A stretch of DNA of 64,000 nt, from assembly GCA_964576115.1 (NCBI GenBank), contig CAZNUA010000013.1, positions 1 to 64,000 of the forward strand, read 5' to 3'. Shown one piece after another: positions 1,430 through 55,444 of the stretch. The stretch comes from an uncultured Gemmatimonadota bacterium (GTDB taxonomy: Bacteria > Blakebacterota > Blakebacteria > Blakebacterales > Blakebacteraceae). The notes beneath the pieces are model-generated. The model saw only the letters and a program-made list of their open reading frames with translations. It searched no databases and had not been told where the DNA came from. Position 1 is the stretch's first letter. Each line of letters starts with the position of its first letter. Both the position numbers and the translations under genes were made by a program.

Positions 1430-2596
1430 GTGATGACATCACGCGAACGGCTGCTGACAGCCCTCGACGTCGGGATTCCCGACCGGCTTCCCGTCACGAC
1501 CCACCATCTGATGCCCTCCTTTCTGTCGCAGACCTGCGGCGGAATCTCTGCCCTCGATTTCTTTGACCGGTACGGCCTCGATCCCATCCTCTGGATCGCC
1601 GCCCACCGCCCCGACCAGGGGCGCGGGCACGTCTTCAGTCCCTCACAACCCGAACCGGGTTACCTCGATCCCCGCTGGATCGAATCAGAGCAGTGGCGGA
1701 TCGAGATCGAGCCGCTGTCCGACAATAGCTGTCGCACCGACCTGTTCCGCATCCATACTCCCGGCGGCCAGCTGCAAATGGCCACGCGGGCCTCACCAGA
1801 AACCGCCTGGGTTGTCGAACGTCTCGTCAAGGAAAAGGGCGATATCGATCTCATCGCCCGCTACGCTCCGGCTCCGCTCTGCGACACCGAAGCGGTGAAC
1901 GAAGCCGCTGAAGAGTTCGGCGATCAGGGTATGGTGCGCGGTACCGTGCCCGGCTTCGATATCTACGGTCAACCCGGCTGCTGGCAGGATGCGGCCGTTC
2001 TGGTGGGAACCGAGCGTCTCATCATGGAAACCTTCGACGACCCGGTCTGGGTGCGGACTCTGCTCGACATCGTGCGCGAACGCAAGCTGGCCTGGATCGC
2101 CTCGTCCGCCGGAGCCCGCTTCGACCTGCTCGAGCTGGGCGGGGGTGATGCCAGCTCGACCGTCATATCGCCCGACATCTTCGAGTCGTTCGTGGCCCCC
2201 TGGGATTGTGAACTGATCGCGGCCGCTCATGCGGTCGGGCAGCGGGTGGTCTACCACACCTGCGGGGGGATGATGCCGTTGCTCGAACTGATCGCGGCCA
2301 CCGAACCCGACGCCATGGAAACCTTTACCCCACCCTCGCTCGGCGGCGATGTCGACCTGGCCCGGGCCCGCGAGCGGCTCGGGAACCGGGTCTGCATGAT
2401 CGGCGGTTTCGACCAGGCACGGTTTTTCACCGGATGCACTCCGGCCGAAACCCGCCGCGCGGTCCGGAGCTGTTTCGAAGCCGCCGGGGCGCAGGGGGGC
2501 TACATTCTGGCGCCCTCCGATCATTTCTTCGAAGCCGAACCGGAGCTCATCGAAGCCTTTGCCGATGAAGCCCGGTCGTGTATCTATCCGGCCTGA
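1430..2596 (+). CDS. Uroporphyrinogen decarboxylase family (MtaA/CmuA-like) protein
   Basis: MTSRERLLTAL..PDRLP N-terminus, ISPDIFESF, YHTCG, GGYILAPS motifs. Confidence 0.85.
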   Translation: MMTSRERLLTALDVGIPDRLPVTTHHLMPSFLSQTCGGISALDFFDRYGLDPILWIAAHRPDQGRGHVFSPSQPEPGYLDPRWIESEQWRIEIEPLSDNSCRTDLFRIHTPGGQLQMATRASPETAWVVERLVKEKGDIDLIARYAPAPLCDTEAVNEAAEEFGDQGMVRGTVPGFDIYGQPGCWQDAAVLVGTERLIMETFDDPVWVRTLLDIVRERKLAWIASSAGARFDLLELGGGDASSTVISPDIFESFVAPWDCELIAAAHAVGQRVVYHTCGGMMPLLELIAATEPDAMETFTPPSLGGDVDLARARERLGNRVCMIGGFDQARFFTGCTPAETRRAVRSCFEAAGAQGGYILAPSDHFFEAEPELIEAFADEARSCIYPA

Positions 2597-2694
2597 TACA
2601 AAGACATTCAGAGACAGGCTCGGGCGGCCGGAGACAGAACGCCGGTCCGGCCGCAACGGGATGGTGTGAAAGGGAGGAGAACGGGATTCGACCG

Positions 2695-3393
2695 ATGAGC
2701 GGGGCGGTGCAGAGAATATTCAGCGGTATCGAGGATACCTATGAGGGGATCAATCACCTGCTCACCTTCGGGCTCGATATTCTCTGGCGCCGGCGGGCAG
2801 TGCGGCTGGCGGTTCGTGCCGGCGGGCGGCGCTGGCTCGATGTCTGTGCCGGCACCGGCGAGACCGCCTGCTACCTGAAGCGACGGGCCGGACCGGATGT
2901 CGGTGTGACGGCGGTCGATTTTTCGGCTCCGATGCTCCGGACCGCGGCCCGCAAACCCGCCGCTGCGGGGATCCACTTTACCCTGGCCGACACCGGCCGG
3001 CTCCCCTTTGCCGACGGGACATTCGACCTGGTCACCCTCTCCTTCGCCACCAGGAACCTGAAGACGGGATCGCAGGCGCTCCCGACCGTCTTCGCCGAAA
3101 TAATCCGGGCGTTGCGTCCCGGCGGCCGCTTCGTCAACCTCGAGACCAGCCAGCCCCGCCGGCGTCTGCTGCGAACTCTCTCTCGCGCCTATGTCGGTCT
3201 GGTCGTGCGGCCGGTGGGGCGGTGGATTTCGGGCTCTGATGCCGCCTATGCTTACCTGAGCAGTACTATTCCCCGCTTCCACGGAGCGGAGGAACTGGCG
3301 GCGATCCTCGGCGCGGCCGGCTTCGAAAAGGTCGAGTACCGGTCTTTGCTGGGTGGTGTGGCGGCCATCCATATCGCCCGCAAAACCTGCTGA
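2695..3393 (+). CDS. UbiE/MenG-like ubiquinone/menaquinone biosynthesis SAM methyltransferase
   Basis: YEGINHLLTFGLDILWRR, LDVCAGTGE, LPFADGTFD, AYAYLSSTI; ATG at 2695. Confidence 0.85.
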   Translation: MSGAVQRIFSGIEDTYEGINHLLTFGLDILWRRRAVRLAVRAGGRRWLDVCAGTGETACYLKRRAGPDVGVTAVDFSAPMLRTAARKPAAAGIHFTLADTGRLPFADGTFDLVTLSFATRNLKTGSQALPTVFAEIIRALRPGGRFVNLETSQPRRRLLRTLSRAYVGLVVRPVGRWISGSDAAYAYLSSTIPRFHGAEELAAILGAAGFEKVEYRSLLGGVAAIHIARKTC

Positions 3394-3506
3394 CAGGATA
3401 GGAATCGGGGAGATCGGGACCGCTGAAGGTCGGGAATACGGCGGGGAAGGAATCCACGAAGGACGAAGTCCGGGAGGGAAGAACTCGGGAAAGAAAGGGG
3501 CGGGGC

Positions 3507-4667
3507 GTGCAGTACCGGCAGCTGGGACAGACCGGCGAAGAGGTTTCGGTTCTGGGATTCGGATGTATGCGACTGCCGGTGATCGATGGTGATGAGACCT
3601 GCATCGACGAGCCGCAGGCCACACGCATGCTCGATCGGGCCCTGGAGCTGGGGGTGAACTACGTCGACACCGCCTGGCCCTACCACGGCGGCCACAGCGA
3701 ACCGTGGCTGGGGCGGGCACTGGCCGCCGGGGGACGGCGCGAGCGGGTTCTGATCGCCACCAAGCTGCCGGTCTGGGATCTGAAGCATCCCGATGACTGC
3801 GAGCGGATTTTCACCGAACAGCTCAGACGCCTGCAGACCGACCGGATCGATTGTTACCTGCTGCACAATCTCAACCGCCGCAACTGGCGCCGGGCCCGCG
3901 AGAAGGGCGCCCTCGACTTTCTCGACCGCCAGCTGGCACAGGGGAGGATCCGGTACGCCGGATTCTCTTTTCACGACGATCCCGATCTCTTTGCTGAAAT
4001 CGTCGCGGCCCGGGAGTGGTTCTTATGCCAGATCCAGCTCAACTATATGGACGAGCGCTATCAGGCGGGTACCGAAGGCATGCGTCTGGCGGCCGGGCGC
4101 GGTCTCGGGGTGATCGTGATGGAACCGCTGCGGGGGGGCAAGCTGGCGGCGTTGCCCGATGATATTCAGCGCCTTTTCGCCACCTCCGGGATCGAACGCA
4201 CCCCCGCCGCCTGGGCCCTGCGCTGGGTCTGGGATCAGCCCGAGGTATCCCTGGCTCTGAGCGGCATGGGCGCCCCGGCCGAGCTGGAAGAGAATGCGGC
4301 TACGGCTTCAGCGGCCGTGCCGGGCGCGCTGACGGCCGCCGAGTATGGGGTCATCGATCGGGTGCGCACCAGGCTGCGCGAGCGGATGCCGGTTCCCTGT
4401 ACGGTCTGCCGCTACTGCCTGCCCTGTCCCGAAGGAGTCAACATCCCCAAGATCTTCAATCTCTATAACAATGCCGCTCTGTACCAGGATGTGAAAGAGC
4501 CGGCGGGCTATTACACTATGATCATGCTCTCGTCCGAGCGGGCCGACCGGTGCGTGGAGTGCGGCACATGCGTCGAACTCTGTCCGCAGCAGATCGACAT
4601 TCCGGCCGAACTGGCCCGGGCTCACGAACTTTTCACGAAGGCCTCGCAACCGGCTGAAGGGGACTGA
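3507..4667 (+). CDS. Aldo/keto reductase with C-terminal 4Fe-4S domain
   Basis: VSVLGFGCMRLP, NYVDTAWPYH, IVMEPLRGGKL; CTVCRYCLPCP and CVECGTCVELCP. Confidence 0.9.
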   Translation: MQYRQLGQTGEEVSVLGFGCMRLPVIDGDETCIDEPQATRMLDRALELGVNYVDTAWPYHGGHSEPWLGRALAAGGRRERVLIATKLPVWDLKHPDDCERIFTEQLRRLQTDRIDCYLLHNLNRRNWRRAREKGALDFLDRQLAQGRIRYAGFSFHDDPDLFAEIVAAREWFLCQIQLNYMDERYQAGTEGMRLAAGRGLGVIVMEPLRGGKLAALPDDIQRLFATSGIERTPAAWALRWVWDQPEVSLALSGMGAPAELEENAATASAAVPGALTAAEYGVIDRVRTRLRERMPVPCTVCRYCLPCPEGVNIPKIFNLYNNAALYQDVKEPAGYYTMIMLSSERADRCVECGTCVELCPQQIDIPAELARAHELFTKASQPAEGD

Positions 4668-4711
4668 CCGTCCGGCGATCCGGGAAGCCGGAGGCAAGGA
4701 GGATTATCCGC

Positions 4712-5074
4712 ATGTCACGTTTTCTGTTCATCGCCACCCATGGAACCGACGATCCCGCCCGGGCGACCTGGCCTTTCGAGATGGCCCTGGGAGCGGTCGG
4801 GGAAGGGCACCAGGCTGCGGTTGCCCTGCTCGGTGAGGCGGTCGTGACGATGCGCGACGAGGTCGTGTCCGAACTGCACGGCTTCGGCACGCCGCCGCTG
4901 GCTGAGATCATGGCCGGGATCTCCGAGCATGCGATTCCGGTCTATGTCTGAGGCTCCTGCGCGCGGACCCGTGGGGTCTCGGAAGAGGATTTTGCAGACA
5001 AGCGGGGACTTTGGCTCAACACCGGGCTCTTCATGGAGCTGATCGACACCTACGACCGGGTGATCACCTTCTGA
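4712..5074 (+). CDS. DsrE-family selenoprotein (in-frame UGA at 4949-4951 read as Sec, U-G-S-C), 120 aa
   Basis: Frame continues after TGA: IPVYV-U-GSCARTRGVSEEDF...DRVITF*, giving a full-length DsrE-like protein with UxxC at the family CxxC position. Confidence 0.8.
4952..4990 (+). promoter_or_regulatory. Putative bacterial SECIS hairpin
   Basis: Stem GACCC(4966-4970)/GGGTC(4974-4978) with GTG loop beginning 19 nt after the UGA. Confidence 0.55.
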
Positions 5075-5168
5075 TCCGGATCCCGGTCTGGCTTTGTAAA
5101 CGGTTGTTCCACCTGTATCCGCGAGAGCATTTGGTGGTGCCCGGTAGTGATTCTGAACCAGCTGTCCG

Positions 5169-6449
5169 TCAGGCGATGATCTCGGTCCCGTCGGGCAGAG
5201 CGACACCTTTCGGGATGACGACGATACCGTCCCGTACATAGTATCCCTCGCCCTCGGTGTCTTCGGCACCGGACCGTCCCTGCAGGACGACCCGGCGTCC
5301 GAGGCGGGCATTCTTGTCGATGATGGCCCGCTCGATCCGGCTGCCTTCTCCGATTCCCAGCGGCGGATCCCCCGGCCGTTCGTTCGGATAAAAGTCGGCT
5401 CCCATCATGACCGTATCGCGGATCTCGCATGCCGAGCGGATGATCGAGCGGACTCCGATGATGCTGTGCTCCACGGTGCACTCGTGCAGGCCGCATCCAT
5501 CGGCCAGCAGAGTATCCTGCACCCGGGCGTTCCCTATCCGTACCGGCGGCAGGTAGCGCGGGTGGGTGTAAATCTGGGCGTCGCGGTGCTTGAATTTAAA
5601 GGGGGGATCGGGTTCGGCCAGGGCCAGGCTGGCCTCGTAATAACTTCCGATCGTCCCGATGTCCTCCCAATAACCGTCGAAGAGATAGGCAAAGGCGTTC
5701 CGCTTGCCGATTGCGGCGGGGATGATCTCGTGCCCGAAATCGGTCGTCCCGGGATTGGCATCAAGAGCCTCGCGCAGGGCCTGCAATTCCCAGACGTAGA
5801 TCCCCATGCTGGCCGCCCACGGTTTGACCTCCGGAGTGCTGCCCTCTGGATAGAGTTCGGTCGGAACCTCGAACCCGGCCAGTTCCTCGATCCGGTCGGG
5901 CTTCTCCACGAATCCCGCGATCCGTCCGCCGGGCTCGATCTGCATGATGCCGAGCCCGCTGAAGGCGGTGCGCTCGATCAGGTTCCCCGCCACGGTGACC
6001 TCGGCCTCCCGCTCGCGGTGCTGTGCCAGCACCTCTCTGAAATCCATGCGGTAGAGCTGGTCGCCGCTCAGGATCAGAACCCGTTCCGCTGCCCAGTCGT
6101 CGAGCCGTTCGAGGGTTTTGCGTACGGCATCGGCGGTGCCTTCGTACCAGTCGGTGCTCTCGCCCAGGGTCTGGCTGGCGGCCTGGATTTCCACAAAGCC
6201 GTCGCTCAGATGCCCGAGGGAATAGGTACTGCGGATATGCCGGTGCAGGCTGGCGGAATTGAACTGGGTCAGCACGTAGATCCGGTCGAGCCCGGCATGC
6301 AGGGCGTTACTGATCGGCACGTCCACCAGCCGGTACTTGCCCCCCAGGGGAACGGCCGGCTTGCTGCGCACCCGGGTCAGGGGAAACAGACGGGTTCCCC
6401 GCCCGCCGCCGAGAATCAGAGTCAGGATTTTCTGCACGGCCACCGGCAT
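5169..6449 (-). CDS. glgC: Glucose-1-phosphate adenylyltransferase
   Basis: ILGGGRGTRLFPLT..RSKPAVP, WYEGTADAV, SGDQLYRMD, YWEDIGT. Confidence 0.95.
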   Translation of the reverse strand: MPVAVQKILTLILGGGRGTRLFPLTRVRSKPAVPLGGKYRLVDVPISNALHAGLDRIYVLTQFNSASLHRHIRSTYSLGHLSDGFVEIQAASQTLGESTDWYEGTADAVRKTLERLDDWAAERVLILSGDQLYRMDFREVLAQHREREAEVTVAGNLIERTAFSGLGIMQIEPGGRIAGFVEKPDRIEELAGFEVPTELYPEGSTPEVKPWAASMGIYVWELQALREALDANPGTTDFGHEIIPAAIGKRNAFAYLFDGYWEDIGTIGSYYEASLALAEPDPPFKFKHRDAQIYTHPRYLPPVRIGNARVQDTLLADGCGLHECTVEHSIIGVRSIIRSACEIRDTVMMGADFYPNERPGDPPLGIGEGSRIERAIIDKNARLGRRVVLQGRSGAEDTEGEGYYVRDGIVVIPKGVALPDGTEIIA

Positions 6450-53828: not shown

Positions 53829-54569
53829 ATGGTGACCGGAACAACCGAAGAGAGCCTGAAACAGATCCAGATTCAGCTGGCTCGCCTGACCGAGCAGATC
53901 GAATACCTGCACGCCGAATCCCGCCGCGATGCCGAGCGCTGGGAGACAGTCGAAGATCTGGCCGCCGATCTCAAACTGGTCGGTCAGGCCGCTTTCGAGG
54001 GGGCGGTCGAAGAACTCGCCGCTCTCGATCCGCATACCACCTTTGCCGATGCAACCCGGCTTCTGCGCCGGCTCGTCGAGAACGCCGATAACCTCGACTG
54101 GACCCTGCAGCAGCTCGAAAGCGTACGAGATTTCACCCGCGATGCAGCCCCGATCGCGACCTTCGCTTTCGAGACCCTGACCGAACGGCTCGAGGAACTC
54201 GATGAGCAGGGAGTCCTGGAATTCGTGAAGGAAGCCTGGCGCATCATGCAGATCATCCTCACCAGCTTCACCCCCGAGGATGTCCGTCTGCTGGGCGACA
54301 ACATCGTTCTGATCCTGAACACGGTGAAGGAGATGACCCAACCCGAGATGATGCGGATGATGCACAACCTGACCAGTGCCTGGCGTGAGGCCGAGGCCGC
54401 GCCCGAGGCCCTGAAGACAGGAACCCTGGCACTTCTCAGGCAGATGAGAGATCCGCAGGTCCGGCGCGGACTGGCTGTGACCATGCAGATGCTCAAGACG
54501 GTGGCGGGTAATCGGGAGCTTGCCGCCGAGGTGGAGCAGAGAACCGATTCCTCACCGAATGGTGAATGA
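53829..54569 (+). CDS. DUF1641 domain protein
   Basis: Coiled-coil body; C-terminal LLRQMRDPQVRRGL. Confidence 0.75.
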   Translation: MVTGTTEESLKQIQIQLARLTEQIEYLHAESRRDAERWETVEDLAADLKLVGQAAFEGAVEELAALDPHTTFADATRLLRRLVENADNLDWTLQQLESVRDFTRDAAPIATFAFETLTERLEELDEQGVLEFVKEAWRIMQIILTSFTPEDVRLLGDNIVLILNTVKEMTQPEMMRMMHNLTSAWREAEAAPEALKTGTLALLRQMRDPQVRRGLAVTMQMLKTVAGNRELAAEVEQRTDSSPNGE

Positions 54570-54585
54570 CGAGGAGACTGAGACA

Positions 54586-54900
54586 ATGGCAAACCTGCAG
54601 ATCGACACGCGAACACTCGAACTCGACGAGGACCGCTTTCTGATCAACCCCGAGGAGTGGGATCGAGAGGTGGCTGCCGCTCTGGCTGAAGAGGACGACA
54701 TCGTCCTGACCGATCGGCACTGGGAAGTCATCGAGTTCGTTCGTTCCTACCACGCCGAGAAGGGGGAATCCCCGACCCTGCGCAAGATCACCAAAGTGGG
54801 TGGGATCCCGACCAAGGAACTCTATCAGCTCTTCCCCGGCGGTCCCGGCAAGAAAGTCGCCCGCATTTCGGGTACGCCGAAGCCCGAGGGCTGTGTGTGA
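54586..54900 (+). CDS. TusE/DsrC/DsvC family sulfur carrier (single C-terminal Cys)
   Basis: LTDRHWEVIEFVR, LYQLFPGGP, PKPEGCV. Confidence 0.88.
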   Translation: MANLQIDTRTLELDEDRFLINPEEWDREVAAALAEEDDIVLTDRHWEVIEFVRSYHAEKGESPTLRKITKVGGIPTKELYQLFPGGPGKKVARISGTPKPEGCV

Positions 54901-54970: not shown

Positions 54971-55444
54971 ATGGGTGAGAACAACGGCCCCCGAAAGCTC
55001 GCCATTATCTGTTCCAAGGGAACCCTCGATATGGCGTACCCCGGTCTGGTGCTGGCCAACGCCGCCCGTCAGGCCGGAATCGAGGCCTTTATCTTCTTCA
55101 CCTTCTGGGGCATGGACATCATTACGAAAAAGAAGATGAACCGGCTCAAGGTCACCCCGGTCGGCAATCCCGCCATGGGTATGCCGAACCTGGTGGGGAT
55201 GCTCCCCGGGATGACCCCGATGGCGACGGCGATGATGAAGAAGAAGATCGACGACATCGACATTCCGCCGGTCGATGAATTCCTCGATATGATCCACGAT
55301 GCCGGCGCGAAACTCTATGCCTGCCGCATGGCGGCCGACATGATGGGGCTCGAAGAAACCGACCTCATCCCGCAGATCGAGGGCATCATCAGCGCCATGG
55401 ACTTTATGGACCTCTCCGAGGACGCGCAGACGATTTTCATCTAG
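54971..55444 (+). CDS. DsrE/DsrF/DrsH-like (DsrE2) sulfur-transfer protein
   Basis: IICSKGTLDMAYP, FFTFWG, YACRM, TIFI. Confidence 0.88.
   Translation: MGENNGPRKLAIICSKGTLDMAYPGLVLANAARQAGIEAFIFFTFWGMDIITKKKMNRLKVTPVGNPAMGMPNLVGMLPGMTPMATAMMKKKIDDIDIPPVDEFLDMIHDAGAKLYACRMAADMMGLEETDLIPQIEGIISAMDFMDLSEDAQTIFI

Follow-up and report, generated by a model that had tools for sequence, protein, structure and literature searches.

DsrE-like selenoproteins, in which selenocysteine (Sec, U) occupies the first position of a UxxC motif, were already described in 2005. Two Sargasso Sea sequences with a predicted selenocysteine insertion sequence (SECIS) have been presented (PMC1088965), a single representative is known from Desulfovibrio vulgaris, corresponding to one genome in 2006 (PMC1794560), and the family is listed as PF02635 with a UxxC motif and the exemplar WP_014524487.1 in two reviews (PMC9312934 and PMC13188914); AACY01486889 is another published exemplar. 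The latter of these reviews, from 2026, describes the functions of such selenoproteins as largely unknown. According to a preprint, SaoD, a DsrE-like family with a CxxC motif, is never a selenoprotein (bioRxiv 10.1101/2022.07.06.499078). In YedF, the DsrE-like domain carries a C-G-x-C motif (PMC5322559). Here we report on a gene found in a 64,000-nucleotide stretch of DNA from an uncultured Gemmatimonadota bacterium (assembly GCA_964576115.1, contig CAZNUA010000013.1, positions 1 to 64,000; hereafter the window, from the genome coded G000). Positions 4712 to 5074 of the + strand very probably constitute a single gene for a predicted 120-residue selenoprotein of the DsrE/YchN family. Because DsrE-like UxxC selenoproteins are already in print, as an earlier note on this DNA had correctly stated, the gene is an additional member of a known family.

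Matched by description, the protein agrees with the published family in its Pfam assignment (PF02635) and in having a UxxC motif with Sec in the first position, here U-G-S-C. The published family is counted in ones and twos in these papers, whereas 48 of the 148 cluster representatives aligned in this study look like truncated Sec forms. The term "Gemmatimonad" does not occur in the reviews PMC9312934 and PMC13188914, nor do "Acidobacteri" and "Actinomycetota" in PMC13188914. The features of the gene, with the evidence for each in brackets, are as follows.

4696 to 4702, + strand: Shine-Dalgarno sequence AAGGAGG, 9 nucleotides 5' of the ATG (sequence read directly)
4712 to 5074, + strand: complete coding sequence of the predicted DsrE/YchN-like selenoprotein, 120 residues plus the stop codon TGA (translation, Pfam, AlphaFold2, Foldseek, and the G+C content of third codon positions, GC3)
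4949 to 4951, + strand: in-frame TGA, codon 80, predicted U80 in the motif VYV-U-G-S-C (orthologue DNA, Cys in homologues, assemblies)
4955 to 4989, + strand: SECIS-like element (minimum-free-energy fold, RNAalifold, covariation)
4958 to 4960, + strand: TGC, codon 83, the Cys partner in UxxC (homologue alignment, AlphaFold2 model)
5072 to 5074, + strand: terminal TGA, the true stop (translation)

The reading frame opens at ATG 4712 and contains 79 sense codons before the TGA at 4949 to 4951, which is codon 80; it then continues for 40 more codons, GSCARTRGVSEEDFADKRGLWLNTGLFMELIDTYDRVITF, up to the second TGA at 5072 to 5074. Translation thus bore out the description given in the earlier note, a 79-residue open reading frame (ORF) stopping at TGA 4949 and followed by 40 further codons. 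The frame in which GC3 peaked did not change across the codon-80 TGA. A promoter and terminator scan of positions 4400 to 5400 gave no + strand signal near the gene. Using a word-index search, we found that the database entries for the protein itself and for two relatives (84 to 85% identity) are all 79 residues long. Standard gene callers therefore truncate this gene, as had been expected.

To place the protein in a family, we relied on profile and structure comparisons of the read-through product. The Pfam DsrE profile (PF02635) matched residues 3 to 120 with 51.4 bits (gathering cut-off, 22.7) and was covered from position 2 to 116 of 116; DsrE was the sole Pfam domain in the product. Since the match spans residues 3 to 120, the DsrE domain runs straight over the TGA. 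The AlphaFold2 model, built from a 51-sequence alignment, had a mean predicted local distance difference test score of 97.2 and a predicted template modeling (TM) score of 0.90. When this model was compared with the Protein Data Bank (PDB) using Foldseek, the top matches were DsrE (2HY5_A), TusD (2D1P_A), YchN (1JX7), and 3MC3, all with a probability of 1.00 and with TM scores of up to 0.83. In a profile search of PDB sequences, 3MC3 was the best match (E = 4.7e-18), followed by YchN (E = 2.3e-8); TusD was recovered at E = 4.3e-4. The read-through product is a member of the Pfam DsrE family with a predicted DsrE/YchN-type fold; the end-to-end profile match and the model agree with the earlier designation of the protein as DsrE-like. 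In the model, a strand (residues 77 to 80) is followed directly by a helix (residues 81 to 86), which places position 80 at the end of the strand and at the helix cap. Cys83 lies in the first turn of this helix, one helical turn past position 80.

Position 80 coincides with a cysteine in the known structures. The PDB profile search aligned it to Cys in 3MC3 (YVC), YchN (KLC), and 3PNX (YAC), and it also falls on the Cys of the TusD segment N-I-C-V-A-A, in a single-sequence alignment that is weak (E = 0.52). In DsrE and TusD, this Cys is the active-site residue that carries the persulfide. YchN of Escherichia coli and 3MC3, a DsrE/DsrF-like protein of Sulfolobus solfataricus, are, like the protein reported here, stand-alone proteins of about 120 residues with this fold (TM scores of 0.80 to 0.83). 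Their residues aligned with the stretch from U80 to C83 are C-K-T-C and C-V-Q-S, respectively, with Cys instead of Sec. DsrE of DsrEFH and TusD of TusBCD, the top two Foldseek matches, have the same fold at an identity of about 20%. However, the TusD segment C-V-A-A has no counterpart of the second UxxC cysteine, and partner genes resembling dsrF and dsrH or tusC and tusB are not located beside the gene in the window. [quoted passage not shown] Unlike YedF, this protein has no SirA-like domain, no match to TIGR03527, and no genomic link to sel genes.

We then considered which residues occupy position 80 in homologous proteins. A HMMER scan of 1.84 billion representative sequences returned 363 matches at E values of up to 0.001. 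All homologue counts given here use the best 150 of these 363; 148 of the 150 were aligned, two of more than 300 residues being omitted, and each row stands for a cluster at 50% identity. Column 80 contained Cys in 55 rows, Ser in 15, and other residues in 18, and 60 rows, comprising truncated and partial forms, had a gap. Column 83 was Cys in 65 of the 148 rows. The earlier proposal that homologues should carry Cys at the position of the UGA was supported by these two columns. As many as 48 rows stopped exactly at query residue 79, mostly after (I/V)P(I/V)(Y/F)V. In a smaller alignment of 13 sequences, column 80 was invariant (C, or U read as C) and column 83 was C in 12; C83 was also invariant in the four closest TGA-bearing orthologues. 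Cys-form genes read VCTPC, VCSPC, or VCEPSG at the motif, the two Actinomycetota genes having V-C-E-P-S-G.

At the DNA level, a search of 41 genomes yielded four matches with exactly one in-frame TGA: the gene in the window, its counterpart in a congener (75% identity), and two genes from another family (47% and 41%). Two more distant homologues in the same 41 genomes had no stop. A scan of species-representative genomes added TGA-bearing genes labelled Acidobacteriota and Acidimicrobiaceae and others from unclassified metagenome-assembled genomes. In all eight genes examined at the DNA level, codon 80 was TGA and the surrounding motif read V-Y-V-U-G-x-C or I-Y-V-U-G-x-C, and all eight were exactly 120 codons long, with no insertion or deletion. 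These eight genes correspond to seven distinct orthologues (one locus, L027, is the congener's contig) and carry the labels Gemmatimonadota, Acidobacteriota, and Acidimicrobiaceae. Within the phylum-level group of 10 genomes, which were 63% to 96% complete, four had the TGA form, one had a Cys homologue, and five gave no match. The distribution of Sec and Cys forms was further followed in a tree built by a quick method from 79 columns of 121 of the 148 rows, namely those with N-terminal coverage of at least 70 of 79 positions and a classifiable end. Sec-labelled rows did not form a single clade in this quick tree, in which the starred branches forced at least four changes and 67 of the 118 inner branches were unresolved.

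A hairpin lies a short distance 3' of the UGA. Its apical stem is formed by GGACCC (4965 to 4970) and GGGTCT (4974 to 4979), which enclose the loop GTG (4971 to 4973); the GACCC-GTG-GGGTC hairpin of the earlier note lies inside these positions and proved to be conserved with compensatory changes. The single-sequence fold extends the apical stem by the pairs C4962-G4981 and G4963-C4980, with C4964 bulged, and adds a lower stem in which TCCT (4955 to 4958) pairs with AGGA (4986 to 4989). The register of the lower stem shifts between orthologues, and this stem has no comparative support. For the comparative test, we aligned the 50 bases starting at the UGA in the eight TGA-bearing genes, which required no gaps. 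A helix was found between columns 16 to 22 and 26 to 32 (counted from the U of UGA), with the loop G(U/G)G, and 94.6% of its 56 cells were able to pair. The hairpin starts 12 to 13 nucleotides past the UGA and has 6 to 7 base pairs. Three of the seven pairs had changed on both sides: columns 16 and 32 (GC/AU), columns 17 and 31 (GC/AU/GU/UA), and columns 18 and 30 (GC/CG). Only 1 of 500 column shuffles reached the observed covariation score, and sliding the 3' partners by one to three columns reduced pairing to 18 to 70%. RNAalifold predicted the same apical helix from the eight-gene alignment alone. In four Cys-form genes, inspected at these columns to control for coding constraint, 4, 3, 1, and 3 of the 7 positions were able to pair, compared with 6 to 7 of 7 in the eight Sec-form genes; the helix was absent in all four Cys-form genes. 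The comparison supports a putative SECIS-like element that is specific to the TGA forms and lies at a fixed distance from the UGA.

One of the Cys-form controls, an Actinomycetota gene (L033, positions 3238 to 3287), can still form 4 of the 7 pairs and folds into a weaker hairpin with a similar offset. This may be what is left of an earlier SECIS, or it may merely result from the R-A-L-G-V codons.

The genome of the source organism (3.96 Mb, 144 contigs, 93.66% complete) contains the machinery for Sec insertion. Models for selA (478.9 bits), selB (320.1 bits), selD (330 bits), and tRNA-Sec, the product of selC (66.2 bits), all scored above their curated cut-offs, in line with the earlier suggestion that the organism uses Sec. 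ARAGORN assigned the anticodon TCA to the tRNA-Sec. The SelB ORF, of 648 residues, contained the Pfam domains GTP_EFTU, SelB beta-barrel, and SelB-wing_3. All four genes are located on contigs other than that of the DsrE-like gene. The selD match (contig C45, 1973 to 2665, + strand; locus L009) comprises model positions 1 to 234 of 311 only and is embedded in a 918-codon open frame; it may represent a fused gene, a split match, or a frame that is simply long in GC-rich DNA.

We propose the following mechanism for the expression of this gene. The UGA at codon 80 would be recoded to selenocysteine, with the hairpin recruiting SelB together with Sec-tRNA(Sec), whose anticodon is UCA. By analogy with bacterial Sec insertion, SelB carrying GTP and Sec-tRNA(Sec) would bind the hairpin by its C-terminal winged helix and deliver Sec to the UGA. 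The terminal UGA at 5072, which has no hairpin element, would be read by a release factor. In the resulting protein, Sec80 would stand at the end of strand 77 to 80 and the N terminus of helix 81 to 86, the site of the conserved Cys of the DsrE family, and would form a U-G-x-C pair with Cys83.

Several observations weigh against the reading of this locus as a selenoprotein gene. Considered singly, the hairpin in the window was no more stable than dinucleotide shuffles of this 64% GC DNA (z = +0.71, -0.44, and -0.09 in three windows). As single-sequence stability is at chance level, the significance of the hairpin comes only from the comparison across orthologues. In that comparison, the three innermost C-G pairs are invariant and overlap the conserved R-G-V codons, and they are uninformative for this reason. 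The covariation is carried by three outer pairs in few independent lineages, and the outermost pair is broken in three of the eight genes, that of the window included. The Rfam SECIS families did not match positions 4900 to 5060 at E values of up to 10, the only hits there being chance matches to MS2 and ALIL; across the whole window, no Rfam family reached its gathering score. For the 48 truncated database proteins, a TGA at the end is deduced from protein length and from the motif at the C terminus. The 40 downstream codons are more relaxed between the window and its congener, with a ratio of nonsynonymous to synonymous substitution rates (dN/dS) of 0.65 measured over these 40 codons only. 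Finally, no RNA run was listed among the sequence runs containing this gene. Against these points stand the features described above, and a 120-residue selenoprotein is, in our judgement, very much the most probable product of the gene.

What the protein does is a separate question. Given the position of Sec80, we tentatively suggest that it could serve as a nucleophile that takes up sulfane sulfur or another chalcogen, with Cys83 resolving the adduct via a selenenylsulfide; the protein may then be a small stand-alone carrier of sulfur or selenium or a persulfide-type oxidoreductase. On this reading, which we regard as possible rather than probable, it would not be a subunit of a DsrEFH or TusBCD complex. 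Two points count against the proposed chemistry: the conservation of the gene neighbourhood ends at the genus, and none of the NCBIfam models, TIGR03527 (YedF) included, matched the read-through protein at E values of up to 0.01.

Among the alternatives, the one that survives best accepts the gene as a true selenoprotein gene and assigns it a role in selenium handling, that is, selenide delivery or detoxification for SelD, rather than in sulfur chemistry, paralleling the CGXC domain of YedF. The U-G-x-C motif, present in all eight TGA-bearing genes, is compatible with such a role. However, the protein has neither a TIGR03527 match nor an N-terminal SirA/TusA-like domain, the best match to the YedF model in the genome is sub-threshold (23.5 bits) and lies elsewhere, and the gene adjoins no sel gene. 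We consider this role unlikely. A broader version of the idea, equally speculative, is that 120-residue stand-alone U-G-x-C DsrE/YchN-like proteins make up a large and nearly always mis-annotated selenoprotein clade of sediment, soil, and marine bacteria. Its members could act as dedicated chalcogen carriers that feed or buffer selenide or persulfide for the selenium pathway of the cell, like the CGXC DsrE domain of YedF. If this were true, the clade would give the long-uncharacterised YchN branch a first function.

A second alternative is that the UGA is read without Sec, through near-cognate suppression (Trp, Cys, or Arg) or through a code change, or else that the protein functions mainly in its 79-residue form, with full-length protein made only in minor amounts on the side. 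Sec insertion is always in competition with termination, and some 79-residue product is likely to be made, chiefly when selenium is scarce; this lends the alternative some support. On the other hand, no stop codon is used more often in the genome than TGA, which ends 2,188 of 3,192 long ORFs, as well as the DsrE-like gene itself. As the main stop, it excludes a genome-wide code change, and its frequency indicates that TGA normally terminates translation here unless a SECIS comes after it. The hairpin, specific to the TGA forms and at a fixed distance, and the full set of Sec machinery are also at odds with a UGA decoded without Sec. A 79-residue protein would, in addition, be deprived of the motif Cys and of four elements of the predicted fold, two helices and two strands. 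We regard this second alternative as improbable.

Even less credible is a nonsense pseudogene, in which a TGC or TGT codon of a DsrE-like gene mutated to TGA and the rest of the frame has been decaying since. Gene callers do stop at 4951, and when the window is compared with its congener the part after the TGA has evolved faster (amino-acid identity of 0.57 versus 0.84 upstream; dN/dS of 0.65 versus 0.13). We also estimated dN/dS from four close pairs in which synonymous changes were not saturated. For the 40 downstream codons, the three Acidobacteriota-type genes gave ratios of 0.21, 0.14, and 0.19, and the gene pair from the other Gemmatimonadota family gave 0.28. To judge from these ratios, the downstream codons are under purifying selection where synonymous change is unsaturated. 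The sharing of the codon-80 TGA by all eight genes, under the labels of three phyla and with no indel or second stop, argues against decay, as does a GC3 that is highest in the same frame throughout. Moreover, both the Pfam profile and the confidently predicted fold require the C-terminal 40 residues. We judge the pseudogene explanation very improbable.

The remaining question, whether the codon is truly TGA rather than TGC or TGT, was raised by the earlier note and was answered in favour of TGA by independent assemblies and by the other seven TGA-bearing genes (six distinct orthologues), which keep it. Contigs from three public assemblies, with word depths of 29 to 48, showed no differences over positions 4650 to 5150; they possibly represent the source samples. 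In a fourth study, a variant contig had five differences over positions 4858 to 5008, none of them listed at 4949 to 4951. The sole variant listed near codon 80 was a C>T change at 4954, a synonymous one for Gly81 according to the codon table. A sequencing or assembly error is extremely improbable: although the source of the window is a 144-contig metagenome-assembled genome, the three identical assemblies, the codon unchanged in the variant contig, and the TGA of orthologues from other assemblies all speak against it.

In two sequencing runs (X1 and X3), contigs of 151 bases matched the window over only the 42 bases surrounding the TGA and hairpin (4937 to 4978, three differences), and their flanks were unrelated. 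These samples thus seem to contain another organism with a different DsrE-like TGA gene of its own.

The finding is an annotation correction rather than a new kind of system. The gene and its nearest relatives are deposited as 79-residue stubs, and the proteins that end at the same spot make up 48 of the 148 homologues. Automated pipelines will probably keep truncating such genes because no NCBIfam model recognises the DsrE-like selenoprotein; the compact, comparatively supported SECIS could seed a search model. Members labelled Gemmatimonadota, Acidobacteriota, and Acidimicrobiaceae are now added to a selenoprotein family that has been little counted. Our results go slightly beyond the papers cited here in that truncated Sec forms are apparently abundant and are scattered among Cys forms in the poorly resolved tree, in the host labels, and in the absence of an NCBIfam model. 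With a predicted Sec/Cys pair where DsrE has its active site, the protein is a sensible subject for biochemical study.

We also inspected the surroundings of the gene. It begins 45 bases past a gene for an aldo/keto reductase with Fe-S domains and faces glgC. The neighbourhood is common to the congener only, where a URO-D-like gene is likewise found upstream and glgC downstream; the other loci are flanked by unrelated genes. No DsrE-family neighbour was present among 21 flanking ORFs scanned from nine related loci. The two congeneric loci differ in the interval between the URO-D-like and DsrE-like genes. In the window (1430 to 4667, + strand), this interval holds a UbiE-type methyltransferase gene (2578 to 3393) and a gene for a fusion of aldo/keto reductase and 4Fe-4S dicluster domains (3507 to 4667). 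In the congener (L027, 756 to 2127), the URO-D-like gene lies about 200 nucleotides upstream of the DsrE-like gene, and neither the methyltransferase nor the reductase gene is in between.

Elsewhere in the window, a gene for a DsrC-like protein (54520 to 54900, + strand; PF04358, 115.5 bits, ending in ...PKPEGCV) is followed by one for a DrsE_2/DsrE-family protein with a single Cys (54971 to 55444, + strand; YACRMA). This pair looks like a conventional Cys-based sulfur-relay pair that is unrelated to the Sec gene. In another genome (G034, locus L026), a distant Cys homologue (VCSPC, 29% identity) lies between two ORFs (644 to 1417 and 1886 to 2398, both on the - strand) that contain CxxxxL..PAWCR-type segments. 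By eye, these segments of the flanking ORFs look similar to TusA/SirA-like domains; if so, the Cys branch might belong to a sulfur-relay setting.

The genome was also crudely scanned for other in-frame TGA codons, using the coding score on either side of the TGA and the presence of a hairpin. The scan gave 188 candidates, with the DsrE-like gene among them; most of the 188 were adjacent genes in one frame. We checked 20 candidates, picked by redox motif, against Pfam. Three turned out to be clear false positives: Map with infA behind it, an aminotransferase gene end, and LolA with a further gene behind it. Twelve had no match or flanking matches only. Neither a Sec-type formate dehydrogenase (the one molybdopterin match has no internal stop) nor a SelW-like protein (no Rdx match) was found in the genome; at 93.66% completeness, the absence of both is unproven. 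The following candidates were retained.

Contig C66, 13080 to 13790, - strand: candidate peroxiredoxin, FTFVUATE (AhpC-TSA match of 124.2 bits spans the TGA)
Contig C50, 17847 to 18758, + strand: candidate thioredoxin-like AhpC/TSA protein, WUPPC (Pfam domain of 77.4 bits spans the TGA)
Contig C40, 20484 to 21392, + strand: second candidate AhpC/TSA protein, TDTULPS (Pfam domain of 45.5 bits spans the TGA)
Contig C23, 41277 to 42329, + strand: candidate HdrA-like flavoprotein, DCSIUILGP (domains flank the TGA on both sides)

The selenoprotein candidates obtained so far from this genome are all of thiol-oxidoreductase types.

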